DNA of 64,000 bases from a virus (IMGVR_UViG_3300042691_015471:3498-67497); one strand, 5' to 3'. Shown: positions 6,609 through 39,878, counted from the stretch's first letter. A program made the numbers and translations. Notes: generated from the letters alone by a model not told the origin.

Positions 6609-9600
6609 ATGCCGGATCCTATTTTAGATTTGATTCTTAGACGCAAGGCTGCTAAGGGTAAGTTGAATAATCAGAGCTCACAGACTGTGACAATGATGTC
6701 TCCAGCAATTTCTGATGACGAATCATCGCAGACTAAGCTTGACTTGTTTGATATTGACAGAAAGATATCTATGCTAGGGTATAACCCTAACGATGCAGAA
6801 CAAAAGCTTGGAGACCTTCCCGACAATACTCCTGATTTCTTAGTTCATGATTTGTTGAATATAGAGAATCCTGTTGATTTAATTAGGAAGAAGGCTGCTA
6901 TAAAATGGCAAGCACCTTTAGTCAAAAGTGTTGAAAGCATACTAGACCCTGCCCTTAGGAGTAAGGCAATGGAAGAGTTCGACTATATCTACAAGGGCAT
7001 TACTGGTGCTAAGGGTGAGAAATCAAACTACTATCAAAACGCCATCTCAAGTACTAAGGCAGCTGTTGACATTATAAACAAATATAATGGCAGTGGTGAC
7101 AAGGATGAAATGCTTGAAAACCTTAGAATTAATTCAGAGTATGGATTGGCTCAATCATTGATGCAAGATCCATCTGCACAACAACGCTGGGCAGACATAG
7201 GTCTTAATCCAATTCAAGGGATTGCCTTAGATATAAAAGAACTGTTCAGCCCGGAAGGAAAAGGTTACAAGGAACAGGTTGTAAAAAAAGCTGTTTTGCC
7301 TGAGGCAATAAGCGAGCAGAATTTCAAGAAGGCTCAGCTTGAGCGTGAGGGCATCAGCATCCTTGGAAAAGAGATAGACTATCTTCTTGAAAGCAAGTCA
7401 GGTGCCGTAAAGAAGGCAGACGAATTCTATAAGCAGAACGAGGGTAAGCTTGCTGAGCTGGGTGAACTTATCAAGAAAGATTCAAAGCTTTCTGAGGAGA
7501 TGAAGCAAAATCTTACTGGATTTCATACAGAATATAAGCAGGCGATTGAAGGCAAGGATGGAGATGTATTTATCAGTCCGTACAACTTTGATGTGCTCAA
7601 GGCAAAGGTCGAAGACAAAACTGCAAATGCATCTGAGGTTCGTGAGTATAACAATCGTGTAGGCAAACTTAATCAAATAGTCTCCAAATACAAAGGAGAC
7701 TTTGATGCTGCCAAAGAAAACAATGTTGAGCAAAACTCGGCTGTTCGTGAGTACAACAAGATTGTAAATAAAATCCAAGAATCCTATCAATCAGTAAAGG
7801 ACACGGGTAAGCTTTCTGCATGGGCAGAATACCTAGCCAAACAAAAGGGTACACTTGGTGAAAGGTATCCTGAGTACAAGCAACAGGAGTTAGAAGGACT
7901 AGTTAAAGATATTGCAGGTGATAATGTTGGTCTTGGCAAAAAGACTGTATTCCGTTATGCAAATTCTATAGGTGCAGAAACTGTTGATGCAATCCGTAAG
8001 GTATGGAACAACCTGACAATATGGGATGGCGATAAGCTGAGAGATGTAGAGATGGGTGATGCATATCGTAGGCGTATTGAGGATGTGATTATGGGATACG
8101 AGACAGGAACTCAAATGGTGAAAGATGAGCGTACTGTAATACCTGTAGTGCAGAAGGATATCCAAGACGAGCTGAATAAGATTAAGAACAGCAATCTGTC
8201 TGAAGAAGAAAAGTATCAGCAGAACTATAAGATAGTCTCAAAAGCATTTGACGATAAGAAGGTACAGTATGTAGCCAATCCAAAGTATGGCAAATACAAT
8301 ATAACAGCGGATTCCGTCTTGAACACCGTGTCTAGTATGTCAGCACAATTTGTTGGTCAGATGGTGCAAACATATTTGGGAGGTGGATTTGGAAACGTAT
8401 CAAAAGCCAGGAGGTTGCTCACAAGGGGCAGCACTGTCTTCGGTCAGGTATTTGGCAGAGAGTATGACTTAGCTGTACAGCGTGGTGATTCAAACCCATT
8501 TGAACAAGCCTCGACAAAAGCTGGTATTGAGATGCTGAGTGAGTTTGTTTTTGATGACGTTGAGTTTGTCAAGAAAATGTCTCCTGCATTCGCAAGGATT
8601 GCAGGTGATATGAGTCAAGCTGAATGGAAGATGCTCACGTCTGGCAAAATAAAAAGCAACATAGGTAGGGAAATTGCTAGTTCTTTAGAAGCTCTTTTTA
8701 AAGAAGGTACTGTTGAAGAGGGTCTAGCGCAGCTCGGGGGGAACTTTGCAGACAAGTATATGTTCGGTAAAGACAATGATATCACAGAGGGTCTTGACGT
8801 AGCAGTGCTTGCAGGTACTATAGGTTTTGCACCAATGGCACTCATAGGCCTTCCATTAAAATACAGATCAGCCAACATGAGTGACAAGCTCATGATGTAC
8901 CAAGCAGGGTACAAAGCTGACCAGGTTATCGAAGAGCTGAATCGCCAGGTTGGTTATGGCGCTATAACTGCCGAAGAGGCGAAGCAAAGGATAGAGGCTG
9001 TAAAGACCATGAAGGAAGTTGTTGGCGGTATGAGTATGTACGATGCCAATGGCAAACCACTTACAGACAATCAGAAGGCACAGTATGCCTGGAACGAATA
9101 CACCAAGATCAAGGCCAAGAATATTGAGAACTTACCTGAGCAGCAAAGACAAGAGGTTGAGCAGGTAGCTGCAGAAGCAGATCAAAGTAGTAGTAACATC
9201 TTAAACGGTACAGACAATGCCACTTATGAAAGCACAAGGCCCATGCAAGGAATGCCTGCAGAAGGCGGTAGCGTACAACCTCAAGCAACTGTCGAAGGAC
9301 AACAAGAAGAAGGACAAGCCACGCAGCCGACAGCAAATGTTGGCTATAGCGATGGCAGCGGCCAAGAGGTAGACATTGCGGAAGTTCCGCAAGGATTGAC
9401 AGCTATTGCTACCAAGGTGATAGGCGATGCAATCAACACTGCCAAGTCCCTGGTCAAGACCGGGATTAAGGTAAGGGTATTCCAAAACCAAGAGGACTTT
9501 GAAAGAGAATCTGCTAAGCTCGGGCAACAAGCTCGGGGGCAGGGTGTTTTCATGTCCGATGGTAAGCAGGTCCTGATCAACCTGTCAAAGATTAACGAGG

Positions 9601-12600
9601 TTAAAGACTGGGGTATTGTATGGCATGAAGGTGCTCACCCGGTTATGAATATATTACGCAACACCAATACACCGTTGTACGATAAGATGGCAAAAGGCTT
9701 TACTGCTTTGGCCAAACAGGGTGGTGTGTTTGCTCAGGTTGCGAAGTGGGCAAAGGGAGATTACAATGGTGCAGCATCTGATGTACAAACAGATGAGGCC
9801 ATGGTTGAGACCATTTCATTGCTTGGCGATGGTAGGATTAAGTTGGCAGATATCCCAACAAGTTTCCGTCAGCAGGTTATTGATTTTGTCAACCAGGTGG
9901 CAGACTTCCTTGGTCTTGGTCAGATGTCAGACACTAGTGAAAGGGTGTTCATTCAGAAGGCTTCTCAGATTGCAGGAGCTCTCCGCTCGGGGGAAAGCAT
10001 TGAGTCTGTGGTAGGTGCTGAGAACGTAGGCATGACTCAGAATCCGTTTGCTCAGAAAAGAGACCAGATTACATCACAGCTACGTGACAGGTCGAGTTTT
10101 GATTTCTTGCAAGGGGATGCATTAAGTGTACAATCTGAGAATCCAAACAATATATACAATGCTATCAAGTTTGCCGATGAGTCAGGCTTTGATAAAAACA
10201 TAGACTTCAAGCTTGCTCTTCAAGAAAGGTTTAATACCCACTTGAAAGAACTTAAGAAAGCTTATGGTAAGGATTTTGAGCCCCTGCAATACAATGAGGC
10301 TGTGAAGAAATTCTACGTAGATGCCATTAGGGAGGAAGCTAAGAAGGGTATTCAAGATCACCCTGAGGCTATAGGTTGGTATGACGAAAAGACAAGGAAT
10401 GCTTTGTCGATCATATCTCTGATACATCCTGAGATTGCTACAAACATAGATGACCGTGCTGCATTTATTCTTCCATTAGCTATCACTTCAAATGGCAACC
10501 TTGTTGACAAGAACTTTGAATACGCTCTTGATCAGTATGAATACTTCAAAGCAAATAAAAGGTACAATGCAAAAGGTGAGTTTGGGGCACAGCAATCCGG
10601 TATCATTGCTTCATTAAATCTAATGAATGCAATCCTTGATGCTGGAATAAGTATGGAGGATTTGACAGATTACTTCACCACTATGCACAAGGCTGGTAAT
10701 CTTAAGTTCAAGATCAAGTCCGGAGGCAAGTCAAAAGACGTAGATCTTTCTGGAGGGGAGCTAGTAGATGAGGATGTGTTTGGTGCTTCAATCTTAGGTC
10801 CTAAGATAGGTAATGGATTCTACATGAACTTGTGGGGTGAGTTTAATCAGCTTACTATGGACAGGTGGTTTATGAGAACCTGGGGTAGGCTTGGTGGAAC
10901 ACTGATTGACTATGACAAGGGTCTAGTAAACGAGAATAAGAAAAGGCTTAGTGATGCATTGTCTGCAATTAAATCAGACCCTGAGTCGAAGAAGATACTG
11001 AAGGATGTGGTCGGATCCACTTCTGGCATGTCTGTTACTGACTTAGCGAATACCATCAAAAAGATATCTGCAGACAAGGTATCTCGGAGTAAGCTGACGA
11101 ACAATCCGCTTACAAACGAATTAAGGAAAGCTTCAAATACGCTTGTTGGAAACATGCTTGGAGAGGTGGAGCTGCCACGTCATGGAACAGAAAGAAAGTT
11201 CATAAGGGAAGTGTTCCGTGATGTTCAAAAAAAGCTTAAATTAGAGGACAATATAGATATCACTATTGCTGATCTTCAAGCGGTGTTGTGGTATCCCGAA
11301 AAGATATTATACGACTCATTCCAGAAAAACAAAACATTTGAACAAAATGCAGCAAGATATCAAGAAGGATCAGCCCCAGACTATCAAAATGCAGCAGCAG
11401 ATCTCGCAAGAGGAAGAGGATACACAGATGTCCAAATACAGGATAGTATCCGAAGAGGACAATCCGTTAGATTCTCTGACACCAGAGGAGATGCAGGAAT
11501 TAGCCAAGCAGATCGCACTCAGAATAAAGAAAGAATCTTCGGGGTCGTAAAGGACTTCAAATCTAAAAATGAAGTATCTCAAGAACGCAACTCATCTGTA
11601 TTTGCAGCACCGTTCTACGACCTGTCCCTGCGGGATCAGCCTGGTAATTTTACCACCAAAGCGGACGAAGCTCGGGGGACAGAAGCATATCAGCAGTACG
11701 AGAATGATATCAAGGAAGTTGCTCAGCTTCTTGGTATAAACCTAGAAGATGTTGAGAATCTTATTGGCGGTTTTGAAAACGAGCAGGGCAAGAAGATAGT
11801 TGAAGTTGCAGCCAAGAGTAATATTGAGGTTGATGATTTCAATAAGGCGATTCAGTTCGCTGCTATCCTTGGAGCGATTGCACCAGAGACTCAGGAGTCT
11901 ACCATTGCAGCAAGGTATGTAGAAGATGATACGCCTGACCATAACGCAGACGAGTATGTCATCCAGGTTAGTGATCCGGATCTTGCGATACAAGCGCTTA
12001 CAGACATTGGGGTGTACAACTTCAGTGTTAACGAAAAGACAAATGAGGTAACCCTACTCAATATTTTTGCCTACCCAACCGAGAATATTAAAGGTATAGT
12101 CAATAACTTTGCGTCTAAACTTAATGAATATGGAGTTGAATACACCCCTGCAACCAAGTCAGCCATCCAGTCCGAGTACATCGACTACAACAGAAGGCAA
12201 GACATTATTTCAAATATTTCAGGAGATGCCGTATACGGACAAGCGGGGCAAAGGCTTCGTGATGTCATCGCCAATGCAAGGCAAAGGAATGAACAGTTCA
12301 TCAAACAAAAGCAAGGACAACAAAGAAGATCAGCCGCTGTAACAGCTGAGATGGATTCTATAGTAGCTGATGCCAAAGCTAACGGCACCTACTTAAAAGC
12401 CCCTAACGGTAACGATACAAAGCTTACCCCCGATCAGTGGGCAACTACACGTACACAGAATTTCAAGAATTGGTTTGGCGATTGGGAGAATGATCCTGCC
12501 AACTCATCCAAGGTTGTGGACGAGAACGGTGAGCCGTTGGTTGTGTTTCATGGCACTGATAATACCTTTGATACTTTTGTCCCATCTACTGCACAGGGAT

Positions 12601-15600
12601 GGGGTAATGGCATTTACTTCACTGACAACAGGGAGCAGACTTCTGAGTTTGGGAAGAACACCGTTGAAGGATATCTCAGCATAAAGAATCCTATCACTAG
12701 TTCAAACTATTACAATACAAAGGAGGCTGTAAAAGGTACGAAAGCTTGGAGCAGTGCCACAGCTAGTCAGAGGAAAAGGTGGAATGACGAAGAGCTTGAG
12801 CTTGATTTTGATGATGCATTCCAGGAAGATATAAATCTATTGAATGCTGCTTGGAAGGAGCTCGGTTTTGATGGAATCATATTTGAAGGTAGCAATAGTA
12901 TTGACGGTATTGAATATGTTGCTTTCAATGCAAACCAAATCAAGTCTTCTACAGATAACTCTGGTGCATTCAGCACTACAGATAATAGAATACAAGAGAG
13001 AAGGTCTGCACCCAACGGTAAACCATCCAACCTTAATCCTAAACAATACGAGCAGGTAAGGACATCTGAGTTCAAGAACTGGTTTGGAGACTGGGAGAAT
13101 GATCCTAAAAATGCATCAAAGGTTGTTGATGAGAATGGAGAACCGTTGGTGGTGTATCATAACTCCCTCTTCAACAATATTGAAGAGTTTAAAGGATACG
13201 TTACATACTTTACTGATAACAAAGAATACGCAAAGACATTTAAGGGGATTGAGTTTCCAAATGAGACACAGTATGAAGCGTACCTAAATATTCGTAACCC
13301 GTACAACTCAACTAAACCAATTGCCGATGTACCTGAAGAGGTATTCAGAGAAGGTAAAATTGTAGCGCCAAGACTAGTAAAGAAATTTTTTGGTTCTGCT
13401 ATTGATGGGTTGATAGGTGTTGATGCTGGTCAAACAAAAGGGAAAACATATGTATCATTCAACCCCAACCAAATCAAATCCGCAACAGGTAACTCTGGCG
13501 CATTCAGCACTACAGATAACAGGATACAAGAAAGGAATTCAGCAGGAGTGACTGTATATCATGGTGGAGAAATTAGGAGTGCCAAAGATATAGATAACAG
13601 CATTCCGTTTTTTGTAACGGAGGATAAAACAGAGGCAGGGTACTATGCGAAAGGTAATAGAGGTGAGGTATCTGCATTTAAGATATCTGAGGATACGATA
13701 GCTGATGAAGACTTGGTTTACGATATCCTAAGAAAGTTAGGTTTTTCAGAAAACAAATTGTCTTATAATGTACATGAATTGGTTGACCCAAGGTTTGAAG
13801 AGTCATATATAGGCAAGGGAAATGTAGATAAACTTTTCAGTGAAATTAAGGATGCTGGGTTTAATGCCGTAAGATTTACTGACGCAGGGTTGGGAGCAAA
13901 AAAGTATGTTGAAAATATTGTTTTAGTTGACCCGAAGAATACGATAGCCCAGTTCAAAAACAGTTCAGTAGACCTTCTCAATGAAGGCATCCAGAACAGG
14001 ATGTCTGCAGCACGCATTACAAGTAAGGCTGTAAAGAATATCACAGATGCCATCACCAACCTGGGATATGGTCACCTCCCTGAGGATGTTCGGGAGAAGC
14101 TGAAGAAGAAGCAGCGCCTAATCGATGCAGATCTCAATGAGATGAATGTATTGTCACAGCGTTTGGCTAATGCTGTTAAGGAGGCTTATGGTAAGGACTA
14201 CAAGAAGCTTGACCAGGACACGCTCACTCTACTAGATAGTGCACTCAGAAACTTTGAGGGAATGAACATGAGGGAGAAGGCTGCACAGGCTAGTAAAATT
14301 CCTGATCCGATACTCTCTATATTAGAGCAAATGCGTGCGCAAGTAGATGCTATGTCTCTAAAGCTTATAGACATTGGCGTACTTGATGACAGCCTGGAAC
14401 CTGCGTTCGATGGCGATAAAGGATTAGGTGTTTACCTGACTAGGACATACAGGAAGTATGACGATCCGGAGTGGGTAAACAAAATCCCTGAGCCAGTCCG
14501 TCAGCGTGCCATACAGTACCTGAAGGCAAACAACTTCGTTAGGCAGTTCGATGCTCAAGGGAATGAGATTGATGAGAGGGAGTTAACCGATGCAGAGGTT
14601 GAAGGTTTGGTGAACTACATCGCCACCAACATGCAGCCGGTGATGGAAGGATTGTCTAGTGCGAATATGGGCAAGACCAAGGTGGACATCCTGAAAGGAA
14701 GGAAAGAGATCCCAGAAGAGATTAGGGACTTGATGGGTGAGTACAAAGATCCGATGGTAAACTTTGCCAAGTCAATGGCCAAGATGTCTAGCCTGGTGCA
14801 GACACATCAAACACTTAAGGCGATTGCCGAAGAGAATATGGGAACGCTCTTCTTCGAGCGACCAACCGGAACTCACTATGCTCCTGTGGCAGGTGAGAAC
14901 AAGAACTACCTGCAACCGTTGTCCGGATTATATACCACACCTGAGATTGCAGAAGCATTTGGGAAGGTTCAGTCAAGCATGCAAGGTGACGATGTCAACC
15001 AAAGATTCCTTAGGTTTTTAGCCGGGGTAAACGGTATTGCCAAGGTAGGTAAGACAGCATTGTCCCCTGCATCTTGGGTACGTAACGTAATTGGTGGTCA
15101 CGTCATGATGCTGAAGGACGGCCACATATTTGGCAATGGATATGCGGAAGGATGGAAGAGCGCAATTGGGTACTTCGCCAACAAGAGCAAAGACGATCCT
15201 GCCTTCCAGGCTAAGATCCGTGAGTACATCGAGCAGGGTATCCTGGGAGATGGTGTACAGGGTGGAGAGTTCAAGGCCATCATTAAAGCCGCACAGAAGC
15301 ACGAGAGTCCAGTCGAATGGTTGCAGAGTGATAGCATGCTTGGCAAGGCTGTCAGTGGCGTAAAAGGCTTCTATTCAGCTCAGGATGACATCTTCCGTGT
15401 GTATACATACGAGAATGAAAAGTCTAGGTTGGCTAAGCGCAAACCTAACATGACTGAAGAGCAGCTGCAAGCGGAGGCTTCAAGGAAAGCCAGGGCTACA
15501 TATCCTACCTATTCAGAGCTCCCTGAGATTATCCGTCAGTTGGCCAAGTTTATTCCAATCTCATCTTTCCCCGCATTTTCTGCGGAGCTTATAAGGACTA

Positions 15601-16544
15601 CCAAGAACTCTATTAAGATAGCATTTGAGGAGATCGCAGACCCTGACATGAGGGATGTAGGTTTCAAGCGTTTGGCAGGAGTGATCAGTGCCATTGGTTT
15701 TGGTAGCACCCTGGCCGGACTGAGTGCCATGCTTGTGGGTGTAGGAGATGAGGAAGAGAAGTCTATCAGAAGATACTTCCCAACCTGGAGCAAGAACAGT
15801 CCTGTAGTTTGGTTGGGTCGTGACGATAATGGCATGCCCAAGTATGTTGACCTTGGATTCTCAGATCCATTCTCATACTTCAAGAAGCCTGTGGTTGCAA
15901 TGACTGAGGATGCGCCAATGGGTGACAGAATTAAGAATGCTGTAGGCGAGGTTGCTGCTCCATTCGTATCTCCGGAAATCTTCTTCTCCGCTCTAGCCAA
16001 AGGTACCAAGAAGCTCAAAGAATCGGATGACTTGGATGAGGTGATGGGTAAGTATGCAGGACCGGTGTATGAGGCGCTTGAGCCTGGATTGGTGGCAAGC
16101 ATGAGGAGAATTGGTAAGGGATTGATGGGAGATGTGGACAGGTACGGACAGCAGTACGATCCTAGTCTTGAGCTCCTGGCATTCTTCTCAGGACAGCGTA
16201 TCAAAAAGATGGATGTACCTGTAGGCTTCAGCTTCAAGTCAAGGGATTTTGCCAACACAAAGCGTGACATCATGAGCGGTTACTATACAGAAAAAGCTAA
16301 GACTGTTGGTGATCCTGAGAAGCAAGCTGAGGAATTGGCAGATGCAAATGAGAAGCTAGAAAGATACTTCAACGAGTACAAAAAAGACTACGATGCTGCC
16401 ATGGTTTTGATGACCAGAAATATGACAGCTCGGGAGGCAAAGAAGATTCTGAAGAATACCATGAAGGATAGAAACATCCCTAGTGATTTCATAAAAGCTA
16501 TAGAGAAAGGAACCCAGTACCCTACGATTGAAGATGATAAATGA
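6609..16544 (+). CDS. Giant polyvalent virion protein (zincin HExxH peptidase, HhH-glycosylase-like domain, three ADP-ribosyltransferase-like modules, helical C-terminus)
   Basis: VWHEGAHP at ~9618. GWYD...GPKIG...TMDRWFMR...DLQAVLW at ~10370-11295. Twice FKNWFGDWENDP.N.SKVVDENGEPLVV(F/Y)H...NQIKS, plus a third VYHGG module. Confidence 0.75.
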   Translation: MPDPILDLILRRKAAKGKLNNQSSQTVTMMSPAISDDESSQTKLDLFDIDRKISMLGYNPNDAEQKLGDLPDNTPDFLVHDLLNIENPVDLIRKKAAIKWQAPLVKSVESILDPALRSKAMEEFDYIYKGITGAKGEKSNYYQNAISSTKAAVDIINKYNGSGDKDEMLENLRINSEYGLAQSLMQDPSAQQRWADIGLNPIQGIALDIKELFSPEGKGYKEQVVKKAVLPEAISEQNFKKAQLEREGISILGKEIDYLLESKSGAVKKADEFYKQNEGKLAELGELIKKDSKLSEEMKQNLTGFHTEYKQAIEGKDGDVFISPYNFDVLKAKVEDKTANASEVREYNNRVGKLNQIVSKYKGDFDAAKENNVEQNSAVREYNKIVNKIQESYQSVKDTGKLSAWAEYLAKQKGTLGERYPEYKQQELEGLVKDIAGDNVGLGKKTVFRYANSIGAETVDAIRKVWNNLTIWDGDKLRDVEMGDAYRRRIEDVIMGYETGTQMVKDERTVIPVVQKDIQDELNKIKNSNLSEEEKYQQNYKIVSKAFDDKKVQYVANPKYGKYNITADSVLNTVSSMSAQFVGQMVQTYLGGGFGNVSKARRLLTRGSTVFGQVFGREYDLAVQRGDSNPFEQASTKAGIEMLSEFVFDDVEFVKKMSPAFARIAGDMSQAEWKMLTSGKIKSNIGREIASSLEALFKEGTVEEGLAQLGGNFADKYMFGKDNDITEGLDVAVLAGTIGFAPMALIGLPLKYRSANMSDKLMMYQAGYKADQVIEELNRQVGYGAITAEEAKQRIEAVKTMKEVVGGMSMYDANGKPLTDNQKAQYAWNEYTKIKAKNIENLPEQQRQEVEQVAAEADQSSSNILNGTDNATYESTRPMQGMPAEGGSVQPQATVEGQQEEGQATQPTANVGYSDGSGQEVDIAEVPQGLTAIATKVIGDAINTAKSLVKTGIKVRVFQNQEDFERESAKLGQQARGQGVFMSDGKQVLINLSKINEVKDWGIVWHEGAHPVMNILRNTNTPLYDKMAKGFTALAKQGGVFAQVAKWAKGDYNGAASDVQTDEAMVETISLLGDGRIKLADIPTSFRQQVIDFVNQVADFLGLGQMSDTSERVFIQKASQIAGALRSGESIESVVGAENVGMTQNPFAQKRDQITSQLRDRSSFDFLQGDALSVQSENPNNIYNAIKFADESGFDKNIDFKLALQERFNTHLKELKKAYGKDFEPLQYNEAVKKFYVDAIREEAKKGIQDHPEAIGWYDEKTRNALSIISLIHPEIATNIDDRAAFILPLAITSNGNLVDKNFEYALDQYEYFKANKRYNAKGEFGAQQSGIIASLNLMNAILDAGISMEDLTDYFTTMHKAGNLKFKIKSGGKSKDVDLSGGELVDEDVFGASILGPKIGNGFYMNLWGEFNQLTMDRWFMRTWGRLGGTLIDYDKGLVNENKKRLSDALSAIKSDPESKKILKDVVGSTSGMSVTDLANTIKKISADKVSRSKLTNNPLTNELRKASNTLVGNMLGEVELPRHGTERKFIREVFRDVQKKLKLEDNIDITIADLQAVLWYPEKILYDSFQKNKTFEQNAARYQEGSAPDYQNAAADLARGRGYTDVQIQDSIRRGQSVRFSDTRGDAGISQADRTQNKERIFGVVKDFKSKNEVSQERNSSVFAAPFYDLSLRDQPGNFTTKADEARGTEAYQQYENDIKEVAQLLGINLEDVENLIGGFENEQGKKIVEVAAKSNIEVDDFNKAIQFAAILGAIAPETQESTIAARYVEDDTPDHNADEYVIQVSDPDLAIQALTDIGVYNFSVNEKTNEVTLLNIFAYPTENIKGIVNNFASKLNEYGVEYTPATKSAIQSEYIDYNRRQDIISNISGDAVYGQAGQRLRDVIANARQRNEQFIKQKQGQQRRSAAVTAEMDSIVADAKANGTYLKAPNGNDTKLTPDQWATTRTQNFKNWFGDWENDPANSSKVVDENGEPLVVFHGTDNTFDTFVPSTAQGWGNGIYFTDNREQTSEFGKNTVEGYLSIKNPITSSNYYNTKEAVKGTKAWSSATASQRKRWNDEELELDFDDAFQEDINLLNAAWKELGFDGIIFEGSNSIDGIEYVAFNANQIKSSTDNSGAFSTTDNRIQERRSAPNGKPSNLNPKQYEQVRTSEFKNWFGDWENDPKNASKVVDENGEPLVVYHNSLFNNIEEFKGYVTYFTDNKEYAKTFKGIEFPNETQYEAYLNIRNPYNSTKPIADVPEEVFREGKIVAPRLVKKFFGSAIDGLIGVDAGQTKGKTYVSFNPNQIKSATGNSGAFSTTDNRIQERNSAGVTVYHGGEIRSAKDIDNSIPFFVTEDKTEAGYYAKGNRGEVSAFKISEDTIADEDLVYDILRKLGFSENKLSYNVHELVDPRFEESYIGKGNVDKLFSEIKDAGFNAVRFTDAGLGAKKYVENIVLVDPKNTIAQFKNSSVDLLNEGIQNRMSAARITSKAVKNITDAITNLGYGHLPEDVREKLKKKQRLIDADLNEMNVLSQRLANAVKEAYGKDYKKLDQDTLTLLDSALRNFEGMNMREKAAQASKIPDPILSILEQMRAQVDAMSLKLIDIGVLDDSLEPAFDGDKGLGVYLTRTYRKYDDPEWVNKIPEPVRQRAIQYLKANNFVRQFDAQGNEIDERELTDAEVEGLVNYIATNMQPVMEGLSSANMGKTKVDILKGRKEIPEEIRDLMGEYKDPMVNFAKSMAKMSSLVQTHQTLKAIAEENMGTLFFERPTGTHYAPVAGENKNYLQPLSGLYTTPEIAEAFGKVQSSMQGDDVNQRFLRFLAGVNGIAKVGKTALSPASWVRNVIGGHVMMLKDGHIFGNGYAEGWKSAIGYFANKSKDDPAFQAKIREYIEQGILGDGVQGGEFKAIIKAAQKHESPVEWLQSDSMLGKAVSGVKGFYSAQDDIFRVYTYENEKSRLAKRKPNMTEEQLQAEASRKARATYPTYSELPEIIRQLAKFIPISSFPAFSAELIRTTKNSIKIAFEEIADPDMRDVGFKRLAGVISAIGFGSTLAGLSAMLVGVGDEEEKSIRRYFPTWSKNSPVVWLGRDDNGMPKYVDLGFSDPFSYFKKPVVAMTEDAPMGDRIKNAVGEVAAPFVSPEIFFSALAKGTKKLKESDDLDEVMGKYAGPVYEALEPGLVASMRRIGKGLMGDVDRYGQQYDPSLELLAFFSGQRIKKMDVPVGFSFKSRDFANTKRDIMSGYYTEKAKTVGDPEKQAEELADANEKLERYFNEYKKDYDAAMVLMTRNMTAREAKKILKNTMKDRNIPSDFIKAIEKGTQYPTIEDDK

Positions 16545-31422: not shown

Positions 31423-32727
31423 TTATTCGCCCAGGAAGTCTTTGTAGTAGTTCTTGACCTCGCTGTTGAAATGCTTCTCCACAAAGGCTACATAGCGCTC
31501 AAAGGACATGCTCCTGTCGCTGTGGCCGGAGCAGAACTTGATGTGCCTTTCGGAAACCTTGTGGAAGATCATGGTCGTGATGGCGGTCTTCCTCAGCATG
31601 TGCGGGTGGATGTGCTTGTACATCTCCGCTACTTCTGTGGTCTCTTCACCATATACCCCGAACTTCTTTACCGTGGCGATCTGCTGCATTTCAGGATAAA
31701 GGGAAAATACTGTCTTGATATCCCTGTACAGATTGGAATAGTAGGCATTCTTCTGTGTGAAGATCCTACCATACCTGGTCAGGTTCTCTCGATATATTTT
31801 CTCCAAAAACTTGGGAATGGGCACGTTTGTGTACTCCCTGGTCTTGCCATTCATCTTAGACAGGAACATGGCATCCTTGGTGATGTGCAGGTCATTTACA
31901 GACATGTTCATTGCGTCTTTGATCCTCATGGTGGTGATCAGGATGGTGGCTGATATCTCCCAAGCATACCTCATGCTATCGTCCAGGCTATTGTAGGTCT
32001 TTTCCTCGGTTAGGAAATGCTTGACAAAAGTTGGTTCTAGAACAACCACCGGATTGGGGTCAGCCTTGTAGCTGATGATCTTAGGGAGCTGCAGGTACAG
32101 GTGGTCCTTCCAGTAGTTCACCATGATGGCGATATTGTGCAGGTAGACGGTTCGGGTGCTCATGAACATCCCCTCGTCAATCATGTAGTCATCAAATCCC
32201 CTAAAGTAGTTATTCCACTTGTCGGTGATCTCCCGCTTCCTAGATGCCTCGTCCCGGGGATTGATTGCCATTTCCATAAGATCTAGGCTCCCGGCTATCT
32301 CACTGAATGTAGCAAGCCTTTTTAAAGCAGATGCGTAAAGCATCAAGGTTTTTTCAGAGTAACCCCTGTTCCCCTTCGCTTTAATTTCCCCTCGAACGGC
32401 CATCTGAACATACCTCTTCAGCATATCCACTAAATCATAGGAATCAGTGTTGACTGGTTCTTCCTCCCGGTACTCTGGGGCATATAGCTCCTTGATCTTG
32501 GCAGTGTTCCCTCGGTATACCATGTAGAGGTCGGTGAGCTTAACTTTTTGGCGGTCTATCTCATTGTTGAGACTATCCACAAGCGGGTCTTTACCTACAA
32601 ACCTACCTTTATGAAACTTGAGGTAACCTGGGACCTTAATGCCTGTAGATAGTCTCAATGAGACATCTGTTCCATGAGTAATCCTGGCTTGGATTTTGCT
32701 GCCTCTCTGGCTGAAAGAAACTGTCAT
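31423..32727 (-). CDS. int: Tyrosine recombinase/integrase
   Basis: Catalytic set TMRIKD, GKT, HMLRKT, SGH, ERYV; N-terminal arm-binding-like RLSTGIKV. Start placed at ATG 32727 behind an AC-rich leader. Confidence 0.88.
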   Translation of the reverse strand: MTVSFSQRGSKIQARITHGTDVSLRLSTGIKVPGYLKFHKGRFVGKDPLVDSLNNEIDRQKVKLTDLYMVYRGNTAKIKELYAPEYREEEPVNTDSYDLVDMLKRYVQMAVRGEIKAKGNRGYSEKTLMLYASALKRLATFSEIAGSLDLMEMAINPRDEASRKREITDKWNNYFRGFDDYMIDEGMFMSTRTVYLHNIAIMVNYWKDHLYLQLPKIISYKADPNPVVVLEPTFVKHFLTEEKTYNSLDDSMRYAWEISATILITTMRIKDAMNMSVNDLHITKDAMFLSKMNGKTREYTNVPIPKFLEKIYRENLTRYGRIFTQKNAYYSNLYRDIKTVFSLYPEMQQIATVKKFGVYGEETTEVAEMYKHIHPHMLRKTAITTMIFHKVSERHIKFCSGHSDRSMSFERYVAFVEKHFNSEVKNYYKDFLGE

Positions 32728-32759
32728 ATGTGTTGATTTAAGTATGGTGAACAATAGTT

Positions 32760-33611: not shown

Positions 33612-33877
33612 ACTGGTTTAATATTTCTTTAGGGTAATTTAATTCTCTGCGGATGTGCAGCATCCACTCGTTGAAGGATAATTGCTCCATGTTACTCGAT
33701 TTTGGTTTCAAAAGGTTCCAGCTCGGGGATAAGGTATTTCACCCAGTTCCCTTGTGCAACCATGTTTTCTGCTATACGTCTGGCATCCTCAATGGGCGCT
33801 TTAATGCATGGGCAGTTTGCCCGTACAATGGCCGGATCAAGGCTTACATCGTTGTAGTAGACTGTTACGTACATAAG

Positions 33878-34814: not shown

Positions 34815-34943
34815 TAGTCAGGACAGGATTCGAACCTGCAAGAGAGTCTGATTGGTGAGCATGCGATACCTTTACTCCTCTCTAAGTGGACGCCCTCAGT
34901 ATTTGGGTTTTCCTTTAGCGTTTACCAATTTCGCCACCTGACT
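34815..34943 (-). tRNA. tRNA-like RNA (pseudo-tRNA) with an expanded, non-canonical anticodon/variable region
   Basis: Acceptor AGTCAGG/CCTGACT, D-arm TGGCGAAATTGGTAAACGC, T-arm GCAGG-TTCGAAT-CCTGT; ~75 nt between the arms with no 7-nt anticodon loop. Confidence 0.75.
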
Positions 34944-35405: not shown

Positions 35406-35454
35406 TGGGAGCTGGCCCTGGTAGCGAACCAGGTGCGGTCATTCCTGCCAGCTC
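35406..35454 (-). ncRNA. tRNA-like acceptor/T-arm minihelix, copy A
   Basis: GAGCTGGC..CCTGG-TTCGCTA-CCAGG-GCCAGCTC-CCA. Confidence 0.7.
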
Positions 35455-35460
35455 GGGGGG

Positions 35461-36240: not shown

Positions 36241-36519
36241 CTACTGGCAGCAAAGCTCCCAGGGCTGGAGGCCTTCAAGGCTTGACTCGTCCAGGCCCAT
36301 GGACTGCAGGATGAAGGCTGCAAGCTTCCTGCGTACCGGTGTACTGCTGAGGTCATTGGATCCGATGGCATCGGCTACATCTGAGCCTCTCATGCCTAGC
36401 GTCCTAGCGCAGAACTTAGAGTCTTGGCCTAGGTGGAAGGATCCATACTTGGTTACCAGGGTCCAATCGTGGCCGTAGTAGGTTTCTGAGGTCTCAATGA
36501 TGGGTTTTGAAATTTTCAT
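36241..36519 (-). CDS. Hypothetical early protein
   Basis: 92 aa, AC-rich leader. Confidence 0.6.
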   Translation of the reverse strand: MKISKPIIETSETYYGHDWTLVTKYGSFHLGQDSKFCARTLGMRGSDVADAIGSNDLSSTPVRRKLAAFILQSMGLDESSLEGLQPWELCCQ

Positions 36520-36530
36520 GGTGTGTTGTT

Positions 36531-36586
36531 TGGTGAGGACTGCCTCCGGGAGCGAGCCGGAATCACTTCCAAAAGTGGGGCAGTTC
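36531..36586 (-). ncRNA. tRNA-like acceptor/T-arm minihelix, copy C
   Basis: GAACTGCC..TCCGG-CTCGCTC-CCGGA-GGCAGTCC-TCACCA (one mismatch in the outer stem). Confidence 0.65.
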
Positions 36587-36611
36587 GGGGGTTAAACTCT
36601 ATAGTAGAGAG

Positions 36612-36769
36612 CTACTGACAAAAAGGATCCTGTAGAGCGCCAATAATAGCAGCACCAAGAACAAGAGCAATTGCAAGGCGTATAATCTGTTTCATTGTTT
36701 CCGTTTTAGACTAGCGTAAAAAATAATGTTTGCGAATAGAAAGCCAAAGAGGGTGGTGAAGAGGATCAT
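36612..36769 (-). CDS. Two tiny hydrophobic ORFs (36692-36769, 25 aa; 36612-36695, 27 aa)
   Basis: MILFTTLFGFLFANIIFYASLKRKQ and MKQIIRLAIALVLGAAIIGALQDPFCQ, chained by ATGA overlaps. Confidence 0.5.
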
Positions 36770-36993
36770 GGCTCATATTTTTCAAAGTGATCATTAAGCT
36801 TGTCAACCTCTACAGGGCACTTGCCATTGAGAACCTCGTTTAGGGTTACAGCCGCAAAAAGATTAAGCTGATAGACAACGTGGCTTCTTTTTAGCTCACT
36901 TGTGAGAGCTTCAACAGTGATGGGGTAATGCTTGGCGTAATTGTCCATGGCCATGATGGCCTGAGGCTTGAGCCTCTGATACAAATTTTTCAT
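36766..36993 (-). CDS. Hypothetical early protein
   Basis: MKNLYQRLKP...; AC-rich leader. Confidence 0.6.
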   Translation of the reverse strand: MKNLYQRLKPQAIMAMDNYAKHYPITVEALTSELKRSHVVYQLNLFAAVTLNEVLNGKCPVEVDKLNDHFEKYEP

Positions 36994-37005
36994 ATGTGTG
37001 TGATT

Positions 37006-37058
37006 TGATGAGGAACTGGAGGCAGTATCGCTCTGCCTTCGCTCATTGCTTCCAGTTC
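37006..37058 (-). ncRNA. tRNA-like acceptor/T-arm minihelix, copy D
   Basis: GAACTGGA..GGCAG-AGCGATA-CTGCC-TCCAGTTC-CTCATCA. Confidence 0.65.
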
Positions 37059-37065
37059 GGGGGGA

Positions 37066-37383
37066 TTATCTGAGATTAACCTCAGCCGTCATACGTGCAA
37101 CCTCTTCAGGTGACTCATCACCATAGGGTAAGTAGCAGTCATATGCTAGAACATCGTAGAAGACCTTGAGGGCAACAACATAGTTTCTAGGCGAAATAGT
37201 TTTGTAGAAGCTCAGCACCCTTGTAGATAATTCGTTGTAGTAGTAGCCATCAAACAGGCCGTACATTTGATTTATCATTTCTTTTGGGGCGTTATCTAGC
37301 ATCATCTCACTGATCAGGTAATTAACCCGGCTCAATGTCTCTGCTGTCATGTTTGCGTGGCGGTCAAATGTTCTGTAGTTCAT
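37066..37383 (-). CDS. Hypothetical early protein
   Basis: 105 aa, AC-rich leader, directly after the hammerhead. Confidence 0.65.
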   Translation of the reverse strand: MNYRTFDRHANMTAETLSRVNYLISEMMLDNAPKEMINQMYGLFDGYYYNELSTRVLSFYKTISPRNYVVALKVFYDVLAYDCYLPYGDESPEEVARMTAEVNLR

Positions 37384-37396
37384 GTTCGTGTGTTTT

Positions 37397-37448
37397 AGTG
37401 TTTCGTCCTTCCGGGACTCATCGGTACGGGGAAAAACCCGTAGACACT
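37397..37448 (-). ncRNA. Type III hammerhead ribozyme (U4C core variant)
   Basis: Minus strand AGTGTC^TACGGG-TTTTTC-CCCGTA-CCGATGA-GTCC-CGGAA-GGAC-GAAA-CACT; stems I, II and III all Watson-Crick paired; GUC cleavage triplet. Confidence 0.88.
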
Positions 37449-37864
37449 CACCTTGGCTGCCTTTAGCCTCAGGACTACACTCAACACAAACGATAGATCA
37501 GGATGTGGTGGTGAAGGCAGCTAGGTGTTGTGTTACTCATTAAGTGGCGGTTAGGACTCGCTCCTCATAAAGAGGCTTTGTGGGTTGCTTTCGCAGTGCC
37601 GTTATTGGGGCCATGTGGCCGAGCGTGACGTGGCTTCTCTCCGCTTAATTTTCACTACCGTATTTTCAAAGACCTGCAAAACCAATGACTAAAACAATGA
37701 TTTCGAGAGTAAAATTGAGTAGAAAATATTTTTCCGCAAAATGTGGATTAAAATATGACAGTAAAAAACGCTAGACAAATCCTCTACAAGTCAATAGAAT
37801 CAACAACGAAAACGTTTTCGTACTTTTTCGTAAAAATGTTTTTTGATAGTTAATGTGCAAAACT

Positions 37865-38070
37865 CTAAAATAGAGATTTAAGGTATTTATTCGCTATTGA
37901 ATCGTTTATGTAAAACATACGACACAGCGCAACAAGACCTGGATCTTCTTCACACTTGTAGTTGTTTACATGGTTGTTGAATTCAGCTTCATTTTTTGAT
38001 TCAATCTCAACGATTAATTCTTTTAAGTCTTTTACGATTTCTTGCTTAGATAATTCGAAGTAGCTATTCA
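37865..38070 (-). CDS. Hypothetical protein (AT-rich; start uncertain)
   Basis: MNSYFELSKQE... within ORF 37865-38098. Confidence 0.4.
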
Positions 38071-38241
38071 TTTGGTTAGATTTTTGGGACTTAGACACTT
38101 ACAGGCAGTAAATATGGCAAATACTAATTGAGCTGCATTGGTTAATACACGTTTATGGTTGGTGTTTTTCCCACTACTCAATTGATAGTGGTTTTTGTGT
38201 AGCCGTAAAAACACATCTGACATATTAATAATTTTATACAT

Positions 38242-38532
38242 ATGAAAACAGTGGTTTTTGAGGCTCAAGTCGTACATAAATTAGTCGGTAAAAAATGGGT
38301 TCATGAGATACTTGTAATGCTGCTGCCAGCATCTCGCAGATACAACAAATTAGCACAACTGATACCAGAGATTAAACCATCAGCACTATCAAACACACTG
38401 AAAAAAATGATAGCATCAGGCTTGGTCTATCAGGTTGGTTCGCTGTACCACCTGACTGATTATGGAAGAACAGTGGCTGAAATCGTATTTTGCTATATCA
38501 AAAGCGTTTATAAGCAGCTCGGGGGTCTATAA
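38242..38532 (+). CDS. Second HxlR-like winged-helix regulator
   Basis: LVGKKWV.EIL...RRYNKL...IPEIKPSALSNTLKKM...YHLTDYG. Confidence 0.75.
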   Translation: MKTVVFEAQVVHKLVGKKWVHEILVMLLPASRRYNKLAQLIPEIKPSALSNTLKKMIASGLVYQVGSLYHLTDYGRTVAEIVFCYIKSVYKQLGGL

Positions 38533-38850
38533 CCTCTTGTGTAACAGATAGCGCCTTACACTATAGAGAAAGTCTCTACCTGCAGGAGCAAGGGAGTAGA
38601 TCATGCTTTCCCTGGTAACAAAGCCAGAATTGATTAGGTGTTTCAGGCTGTGCTTGACATAGGTATATGATATCTGATGATGGCACTGAGCAGCATGTGC
38701 AACGATGGTGGCAATGCGGGGTGTATTGAGATGTTTGATGGAATAGAGGCAGAAGAGCTCAGCAAAGTTGAGAGCTCGGGGGGATCCATATTTGCGGGAG
38801 TATAGATCATTAGCTTTCTGGTAATGGAATATGTACTTCTCAATCTTCAT
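38527..38850 (-). CDS. Winged-helix (MarR-like) protein
   Basis: LKHLINSGFV...YSLAPAGRDFL. Confidence 0.6.
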   Translation of the reverse strand: MKIEKYIFHYQKANDLYSRKYGSPRALNFAELFCLYSIKHLNTPRIATIVAHAAQCHHQISYTYVKHSLKHLINSGFVTRESMIYSLAPAGRDFLYSVRRYLLHKRL

Positions 38851-38865
38851 TGGGTATGTGTTTAG

Positions 38866-39040
38866 TGTAGGGGATCAGGGATGTATAGGTAAGGGTTAAG
38901 GGTTTATATTGTCAAGGGGATCAATGTTGGGGATCATGGGTTAAGGGGCTATGAGGTCAGTGATAGGTTAAAGGGGGTTAGGCATGGGTTAGGTTAAAGG
39001 TTGGGTTGTGTTGGGAGGAAGGGAGGAAGGGGGGTTGTTG
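38866..39040 (+). repeat. G-tract-rich low-complexity non-coding segment
   Basis: Recurrent GGG(G) runs with TTAAGGG, GGGGATC and GGGTT units; very few C on +. Confidence 0.7.
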
Positions 39041-39652
39041 TGGTCTTGCGTATACATGCAGGAACCCCGGCCTCCTCCTCAGCTTTCCCCTGGTTCATAG
39101 GCTTCCTTTTCCCTTCTTTTGTCACAGCGTCCGGCTTCCTCTTCCGGGTCAGGAAGGATAAAGTGAATACAGTATTGGCTTTCAGCGTTTCCGACCATTT
39201 ATGCTACATAAATTTTGTGTGACAATTATCGATTTTGGAATGCCCAAATTGACCCCCACCCGGTCGAATTTCAGCGTTTCACTTCGGTCATCGGCCCAGG
39301 CGTTTTTAATATATTACCCCCACTTCTCGTCCACACACAACCCATATAAAAACTCACGGCTTTATGAATAGTGCTGTGGATTCATTACAGGCGATTCTAG
39401 GACCTCAATTCTTCTACACTATGTGCAACCCTGTTCCCCAGTGGGGTTGCTTTACACCGCTAGCTAACGATCTAGAGGAGGGGTGCGCTTCGTAATCCTA
39501 GTCGATACTATCTCAAGGCAATTAGAGAGGCGTTCCTGAGTTTTCGATCCACCGGCCTAGTGGCTTGTACAGCAAATGTAAACGGCCAACTCTCTAAAAT
39601 ATTTTGTTATCATCAATTGTTCATAAGTTTCAAAACATAATAGAGTGCATTT

Positions 39653-39660
39653 TATCTTTG
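39653..39660 (+). promoter_or_regulatory. -7 element TATCTTTG, divergent from minus-strand TACATTTG at 39573-39580
   Basis: Two exact TAnnTTTG boxes back to back around an AT-rich spacer. Confidence 0.55.
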
Positions 39661-39878
39661 CCATCTTGGTTCCACCTGCTAGGGTAGGGGTCCAATCAAA
39701 ACCCCAAGCTATGTTTATTCCGAGGACGGAAATGTTTAAGCTGATAGCAGGAGCGACAGAGATCCTTCTCTGCCAGGTAACTGGAGCTGCGTGACGTACG
39801 ATGGGGTTGACGGTGCAGTTTTCTTCGCAAAGGGAATACCTTTTAAGCGAAGCTTTGTTCAGTACTCAAAGATTTCTG

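Follow-up and report, generated by a model that had tools for sequence, protein, structure and literature searches.

Hundreds of hammerhead ribozymes have been found in bacterial genomes near the integrase genes of prophages (Perreault et al. 2011, PMC3088659). According to the accessible part of that report, clustered prophage hammerheads cleave both in vitro and in vivo, and in one case the ardA gene lies behind a hammerhead. The same part describes a hammerhead with a variant core in the haloviruses HF1 and HF2, which is located 13 nt before an early helicase gene, the first gene of a polycistronic transcript; the mapped 5' end of this transcript falls within 3 nt of the cleavage site (PMC3088659). 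Clustered prophage hammerheads and a hammerhead placed 13 nt before an early gene are therein already published. The role of phage and prophage hammerheads is called 'largely elusive' in the accessible part of a 2019 review, where the processing of polycistronic transcripts is mentioned (PMC6765202).

The window analysed here, i.e. the whole stretch of DNA of 64,000 nt, is part of a viral record that is 67,497 bases long and has direct terminal repeats, and contains one hammerhead ribozyme on the minus strand, between a long conserved leader and a small open reading frame (Table 1). RiboJ-type insulators are engineered type III hammerheads inserted between a promoter or leader and a ribosome binding site, where they cut off the variable upstream RNA and leave a 5'-OH message with 5' hairpins. 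RiboJ is an engineered part, and its likeness to the phage element suggests a function for the latter but is no evidence for it.

The locus resembles the prophage clusters in several respects, as far as these are described in the accessible part of PMC3088659 (variable genes; positions near integrase, marR, and ardA). In both cases, the source is a temperate phage, the ribozymes are on the integrase side and immediately precede small genes of inconstant identity, and arrays are present, here in relatives of the window. The window itself differs in having a single hammerhead, which follows a conserved long leader instead of a gene, and the hosts appear to be different, those considered here being poor in Shine-Dalgarno (SD) motifs, with Bacteroidota-like promoters in the relatives. 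The HF1/HF2 element shares with the window a variant core and the 13-nt distance to the start codon (PMC3088659, in the part accessible); it differs in its insertions near C3, its very high Mg2+ requirement, and its archaeal virus background, the window carrying a single U4C substitution. The same substitution occurs in a viroid hammerhead that is likewise a natural type III element and retains its function in vivo (Ambros and Flores 1998, as cited in the accessible part of PMC3088659), but that element belongs to a plant RNA replicon and serves the processing of rolling-circle multimers, whereas the present one lies in the mRNA leader of a DNA phage. In the searchable literature, U4C hammerheads were met only in PMC3088659. 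Relative to the searchable texts, three features seem to be new: the recurrence of U4C in complete phage hammerheads, the coupling of a ribozyme to a conserved long leader, and the position of a ribozyme at the boundary of an exchangeable gene slot.

Table 1. Features of the ribozyme locus and its surroundings (window coordinates)
Feature	Position	Strand	Basis or remark
Complete type III hammerhead, stem III open, stems I and II capped	37397..37448	minus	sequence, Rfam RF00008, R1 model (72 bits), MFE
Stem III, AGUGU/ACACU	37448-37444 with 37401-37397	minus	sequence
Cleavage triplet	G37445, U37444, C37443	minus	sequence
C17 of GUC; predicted scissile bond 37443/37442	37443	minus	Rfam alignment position
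Stem I, UACGGG/CCCGUA	37442-37437 with 37430-37425	minus	sequence; element 37425..37442
Loop I, UUUUUC	37436-37431	minus	sequence
Core CCGAUGA, C37423 replacing consensus U4	37424-37418	minus	sequence and Rfam alignment
Stem II, GUCC/GGAC	37417-37414 with 37408-37405	minus	sequence; element 37405..37417
Loop II, CGGAA	37413-37409	minus	sequence
GAA after stem II (GAAA when read with the next base)	37404-37402	minus	sequence
Spacer, 13 nt, A/C-rich, without Shine-Dalgarno motif	37384..37396	minus	sequence
ORF P0001, 105 aa, directly behind the ribozyme, variable cassette slot	37066..37383	minus	
Conserved 92-aa ORF, downstream of the variable slot	36241..36519	minus	alignment A1
Conserved non-coding leader, about 250-290 nt	37449..37700	minus	colinearity with relatives
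Perfect 16-bp palindrome ACGAAAACGTTTTCGT, operator-like	37806..37821		upstream of leader
First ORF of the leftward block, 107 aa	38527..38850	minus	weakly winged-helix-like
Integrase	31423-32754	minus	

The source is, judging from its encoded proteins, a temperate tailed phage, because an integrase and a ParB-like protein are encoded together with a primase-helicase, a YqaJ-type recombinase, and a P22-like portal protein. A 3311-aa ORF on the plus strand (6609-16544) carries an ART-PolyVal domain at residues 1971-2121 (Pfam), and its product is a polyvalent protein of a kind known from mobile elements and phages; an N4-like phage, an idea raised by the length of this ORF, is ruled out by that domain, the integrase, and ParB. 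Genes on the minus strand run from 38850 down to about 21200 and plus-strand genes are present from 39801 on, so the interval 38850-39800 was taken as a divergent control region. SD-like motifs precede only 5 of the 35 long ORFs of the window, and these SD-poor leaders, together with the TTTG/TAnnTTTG promoter motifs found in relatives, indicate that the host is probably a member of the Bacteroidota. A host search in genome contigs returned one match, a 1.8-kb contig of an uncultured bacterium that constitutes no host evidence, and a blastn search of the phage record collection with positions 36700-38200 gave no match.

A first-pass annotation of this DNA had described a minus-strand type III hammerhead with a U4-to-C change, and every part that it named was read from the sequence exactly as claimed; the identification was strengthened by the conservation and covariation described below. 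The core residues C3, G5, A6, U7, G8, A9, G12, A13, and A14 and the A15.1-U16.1 pair (A37401-U37444) are all present, and position 17 is a C (C37443), which fits the non-G requirement. The one departure from the type III consensus is at U4 of CUGANGA, a position of high but not absolute conservation, which is C37423 in the window. The ATG at 37383, placed by the annotation 14 nt downstream, is separated from the ribozyme by 13 nt (37396-37384) and begins at the 14th base.

The Rfam search that had been proposed as a check gave a divided result. The RF00008 model (Hammerhead_3) aligns in full length (37450-37395, all 54 model positions), and the element shares with this family the junction open at stem III, the GUC triplet, and capped stems I and II of typical size; it differs in having C4, and its score of 38.6 bits falls below the curated gathering score of 48.5 bits. 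The E-values are 3.5e-7 for a 261-nt stretch and 8.6e-5 for both strands of the whole window. When RF00008 was applied at the gathering level to 10 related loci, no hammerhead was called in them despite their canonical cores; since U4 relatives also miss 48.5 bits, the low score of the window says little about C4. The MFE and centroid structures of a 77-nt stretch are the hammerhead three-way junction, with a folding energy no better than that of shuffled sequences (z 0.17). In a 331-nt context, the MFE structure retains only stem I of the ribozyme, a result of little weight because the ensemble frequency of that structure is close to 0. No second hammerhead was detected in the window either by Rfam at E<=1 or by a stem-and-core script. 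Two other ideas were rejected: an upstream AGUGU copy, considered as a stem III decoy, is not conserved in the related loci L137 and L138, and a suspected second core in GTAGTCCTGAGGC is without G8 and A9.

Relatives of the locus were collected in several ways. A pattern scan with the C4 core and stem II gave 15 viral loci; in one of these (L003), synteny with the window extends to either side of the ribozyme, and two loci from a scan with the canonical core (L073 and L101) are syntenic as well. The conserved 92-aa ORF served as an anchor that is independent of the ribozyme. As a single-protein query it found nothing, and an alignment of four homologues (A1) was needed, which retrieved 14 viral loci; a type III hammerhead is present upstream on the same strand in 7 of them, as identified by script and by R1, a covariance model built from the family. 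R1 scores 54-74 bits in related loci (E <= 5e-15). A second sample was obtained by scanning metagenome contigs for a pattern of the leader only (GATYTATC...GTRGTCYTGAGGC), which yielded 24 loci. R1 finds a ribozyme right beside the leader motif in 18 of these; among the remaining six, one is cut by the contig end and five have no other likeness and look like chance matches to the pattern.

In eight family members, 98.3% of the cells are paired, a percentage inflated by the choice of these sequences with a script that requires the stems, and 12 of the 15 pairs have changed on both sides. None of 500 shuffles reaches the observed values, and partners that were slid along the sequence pair at only 25-49%. 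Compensatory changes affect all six pairs of stem I and three of the four pairs of stem II in the eight relatives; this pattern and the synteny do not depend on the stem-requiring script. Because of this comparative evidence, i.e. synteny, conservation, and covariation, the element is, at the level of sequence comparison, an evolutionarily maintained type III hammerhead. In one pair of relatives (L157 and L168), the leaders are 99% identical and the ribozymes 83% identical, one with C4 and the other with U4, and the loops differ. This contrast suggests either that the ribozyme module has been exchanged by recombination or that it evolves faster, or under relaxed constraint.

The annotation had also proposed that UUC of loop I pairs with GAA of loop II. 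The complementarity exists, but it is not conserved and is within chance: shuffling of the two loops at constant composition yields three Watson-Crick pairs in 38% of cases, random 6x5 loops do so in 15%, at most two bases are complementary in seven relatives, and the strain difference at 37435 alters loop I. According to the accessible part of PMC9901934, type III hammerheads are known to make their loop contacts through networks of non-canonical pairs, and deep mutagenesis revealed little effect of mutations in the loops. The Watson-Crick UUC/GAA pairing is thus unsupported, and some other tertiary contact is possible.

C4 was found in the window, in contigs of four other runs that represent near-identical strains, and in one diverged lineage (L003/L137 and L157/L171, the latter two with the same ribozyme sequence as the former); all other relatives carry U4. 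Counted as distinct ribozyme sequences among the window and the relatives that share its leader, 2 of 12 have C4 and the rest have U4. The contigs of the four other runs have an unchanged ribozyme, including C4, except for one base inside loop I (37435), the only strain difference within the ribozyme, and C4 is kept in a contig (X4) that differs from the window at 35 of 513 positions. The ribozymes of the two C4 lineages are 83% identical and their leaders 66% identical. Between the window and L137, compensatory pairs are present at 1.1/2.1 and 1.6/2.6 in stem I (U-A versus C-G and G-C versus A-U) and at 16.5/15.5 in stem III (A-U versus G-C), with no mismatch, and neither lineage has any other core change.

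For a count of core variants, one core base at a time was altered while stem II was kept as GUCC/GGAC, and a collection of 2.9 million viral contigs was searched. The canonical U4 core was found at no fewer than 120 loci and U4C at 15, whereas no locus was found for U4A or U4G, for G5A, or for A6G. G5A is the classic dead variant of the hammerhead core. Fourteen of the 15 U4C loci close into complete hammerheads (six of type III and eight of type I), a proportion similar to that of the canonical set, in which 130 of 134 are complete among the matches listed. As judged from these counts, U4C is specifically tolerated among the tested core substitutions and is the only one of the five examined that recurs in complete phage hammerheads. 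Decaying relics should include other transitions as well; since these are absent, the C4 class does not appear to consist of relics.

A hydrogen bond from N3-H of U4 is part of the textbook U-turn, and C4 would be expected to lose it. Low activity was recorded for all single mutants of the CUGA turn in the mutagenesis of a type III hammerhead (PMC9901934, accessible part), and U4C 'considerably decreases activity in vitro', while a viroid carrying U4C stays infectious (PMC3088659, accessible part). C4 is best regarded as probably a functional allele, with cleavage that would be slower than in U4 relatives but not absent. Motif searches restricted to CUGANGA, as well as the Rfam gathering score, will miss such elements.

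Downstream of the ribozyme, an ATG-initiated ORF of at least 50 aa begins 8-14 nt past the element in six of the eight family members, compared with 3.5% of 13,580 control positions. Among viral type III elements with U4, the next ORF lies within 46 nt in 24 of 32 cases, with a value of 39% for random positions; because of this high background, only the 8-14-nt interval was counted as evidence. Seven of the downstream ORFs were compared and are not homologous to each other. In three loci (L160, L165, and L169), identical ribozymes are followed by three different sequences, which diverge from within the spacer on. Contig X4 departs from the window at 37388, and its ribozyme then leads into the ORF that starts at 36993 in the window; P0001 is absent there with the ribozyme kept, and P0001 therefore represents a cassette that was inserted or deleted. 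Beside the ribozyme of the other C4 lineage (L137/L157), there is no long ORF, and an ATG ORF of 40 aa or more is first encountered at a distance of 49 nt. The sequence comparisons clearly indicate that an exchangeable gene slot is bounded by the ribozyme.

For P0001 and its small neighbours, PHROGs, Pfam, and the ESM Atlas gave no lead, and a single-protein search of viral contigs found no relatives of P0001. Its sole detectable relative is a weak tblastn match (L103:5582-5749, 36% identity over 56 aa) on an unrelated viral contig, located behind an apparent 3' half of a type I hammerhead. This half contains the stem III hairpin, GUC, and a stem I strand, and its 5' counterpart is replaced by coding sequence.

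Arrays of three to five hammerheads, in which a type III element is followed by two to four of type I, are present in seven relatives, i.e. L173 (6116-7321), L152 (835-2266), L163 (1201-2390), L160 (4063-4756), L175 (2709-3859), L159, and L158. Most type I copies in the arrays are located 11-16 nt, usually 13 nt, before a small ORF; for a few, the next 190 nt or so contain no ATG ORF of 40 aa or more. The constant distance between ribozyme and start codon in both topologies points to a role in the expression of the following gene. At the positions where relatives have type I hammerheads, the window contains two intercistronic elements on the minus strand (37062-36994 and 36590-36520), which have no Rfam match and share a common design consisting of CCCCCGAACUG, a long imperfect hairpin, CAGU(U)CCUCAYCAAAY.ACACAC, and the next ATG.

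Upstream of the ribozyme, 414 nt separate it from the preceding ORF (37865-38098), and this interval contains no minus-strand ORF of more than 30 aa. The leader is colinear with those of L003/L137, L138, and 16 distinct metagenome relatives. Invariant blocks such as GCAACCCAC, GATYTATC, and GTRGTCYTGAGGC hold across 17 aligned leader sequences, the conserved blocks run from about 37700 to the ribozyme, and X4 differs from the window at 8 positions in 37388-37700 versus at least 24 in 37701-37900. A search of Rfam gave no match for the leader, and RNAalifold gave covariation terms of +0.45 kcal/mol for 3 sequences and -3.26 kcal/mol for 13, with few compensatory pairs.

In each of the 15 leader-sharing relatives tested, the motif TTTG-N21-TAnnTTTG, which we take to be the Bacteroidota promoter consensus, is present upstream of the ribozyme and ends at a distance of 258-397 nt from it. 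An exact copy of the motif is missing upstream of the ribozyme in the window, and a scan for sigma-70 promoters and terminators gave results at chance level. Of the earlier designation '5' leader of an early gene', the conserved leader and the promoter-like motif of the relatives speak for the first half, with the exact promoter match missing in the window; by homology with these relatives, '5' leader' is a reasonable designation, and the transcript may also arise by read-through from genes further upstream. We infer 'early' from position alone, the gene belonging to the integrase-side operon beside the divergent control region.

The palindrome ACGAAAACGTTTTCGT is also present upstream in L157, L168, and L170, and in a 14-bp version in L175; in X4 it is unchanged, with differences in its flanks at 37804 and at 37823/37824. 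It is likely an operator, possibly for the product of the first ORF of the leftward block. This ORF has homologues in the same place in L003 and L073, and its Pfam matches, DUF4364 (5.5e-5) and HTH_45 (0.0057), are both below cut-off; its product may be a regulator of the control region.

The observations can be arranged into the following scheme. The minus strand would be transcribed as part of the leftward, integrase-side operon, and the nascent RNA would fold into the three-way junction and cleave itself after C37443. The leader would be severed with a 2',3'-cyclic phosphate end, and the message would keep a 5'-OH; its first part would be the stem I hairpin together with the remainder of the ribozyme, and the unstructured, A/C-rich 13-nt spacer would come next as a ribosome landing site. 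Expression of the slot gene would thereby be uncoupled from the upstream RNA, as in the RiboJ insulator. For an active ribozyme, a 5'-OH RNA that starts with this hairpin is what hammerhead chemistry and the type III topology predict. We infer transcription, cleavage and its rate, and any effect on stability or translation from sequence comparisons; none of the runs listed with this DNA is on record as RNA. An active, self-cleaving hammerhead is likely. For the full statement, i.e. a U4C hammerhead that is maintained, transcribed, and cleaving, with a selected effect on the downstream gene, we lean slightly towards acceptance.

A chance resemblance in an intergenic region would be consistent with the score below the Rfam cut-off and the unremarkable folding energy, but an E-value of 8.6e-5 for the window and the synteny and covariation in relatives effectively refute it, and we consider it exceedingly improbable. 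A different matter is whether U4C has inactivated the ribozyme or made it negligibly slow, the element being then a recent relic or a purely structural three-way junction that would work without cleavage, e.g. as a 5' stabiliser or as a binding site for a protein. The low activity of U-turn mutants in vitro (PMC9901934 and PMC3088659, accessible parts), the minority status of C4 among the distinct ribozyme sequences (2 of 12), and the loss of the adjacent ORF start in the L137/L157 lineage all fit such an inactive element. Against this, the other core bases and the 15 pairs are intact in both C4 lineages despite a leader divergence of 34%, three pairs have changed in a compensatory way between these lineages, and C4 is unchanged in four further assemblies. 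Furthermore, 14 other viral hammerheads with C4 are complete, G5A, A6G, and U4A/G were never seen in the fixed-stem search, and the viroid with U4C remains infectious (PMC3088659, accessible part). Inactivity is, on this evidence, an unlikely explanation.

An active ribozyme could also have been retained for another product of the cleavage, namely the released leader, an ncRNA of about 250-290 nt with a 2',3'-cyclic phosphate end that could be, e.g., regulatory or polymerase-modifying, with any downstream effect being secondary. In L157/L168, the leader is indeed more conserved than the ribozyme (99% vs 83%), and in X4 it has changed less than the adjoining upstream DNA (8 vs at least 24 differences); it has invariant blocks in 17 aligned sequences and starts just downstream of the promoter-like motif in 15 of 15 relatives tested, and a type III ribozyme always abuts its 3' end. 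However, RNAalifold revealed no convincing conserved secondary structure in the leader and Rfam has no family for it; four distant loci (L140, L141, L145, and L149) have the ribozyme without the leader-associated promoter motif; and the leaderless type I hammerheads of the same operons keep the spacing of about 13 nt to the start codon, which argues for a role connected with the downstream ORF. We therefore regard selection for leader release as improbable in its own right, and prefer the reading in which the selected effect of cleavage would be on the downstream gene.

A broader interpretation, which we offer tentatively and whose joint validity is rather doubtful, is that the ribozyme would head a modular expression system of SD-poor (Bacteroidota-like) temperate phages. 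In such a system, the type III hammerhead would release a promoter-proximal leader RNA of about 250-290 nt, with exchangeable cassettes behind it, in each of which a small gene would follow a hammerhead after a spacer of about 13 nt. Natural insulation and the making of the 5' end would be the tasks of the hammerhead, and the 50 nt conserved in it would provide the recombination joint at which cassettes are swapped. The hypervariable small early genes, including P0001, would have accessory or counter-defence functions (cf. ardA), and U4C would be a tuned slow allele, possibly pH-sensitive via protonation of C4.

The locus and its relatives provide a comparative system in which a ribozyme is fixed about 13 nt from start codons, where a leader of strong conservation meets a slot whose genes are freely exchanged, and in which natural U4 and C4 alleles occur in otherwise similar backgrounds. 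Insulation versus translation activation by cleavage in SD-independent hosts, U4C as a functional slow allele, and a role of the ribozymes as cassette boundaries are thereby made testable.

Two further observations were made in the window. The 10-mer CCCCGARCTG (with up to one mismatch) occurs in 37 copies, compared with 4.2 expected, and none of 100 shuffles reaches 37. The copies are spread genome-wide, including the antisense strand of plus-strand genes, and the minus strand carries 28 of the 37 copies and all but one of the 13 exact ones (e.g. 38515-38524, 37053-37062, 36581-36590, 35449-35458, and 33719-33728). The motif is strongly oriented and belongs to the DNA level; it is perhaps a Chi-like site or a recognition site for a protein. 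A tRNA match was obtained on the minus strand at 34815-34943, with the ParB-like gene close by and the integrase gene at a distance of about 2 kb; it scores 36.3 bits in Rfam, above the gathering score, and ARAGORN reports nothing there. The acceptor, D, and T arms are intact, the anticodon region contains a 64-nt insertion, and a terminator-like hairpin with a U-tract is located directly upstream. This segment could be an intron-bearing tRNA or a tRNA-like element.
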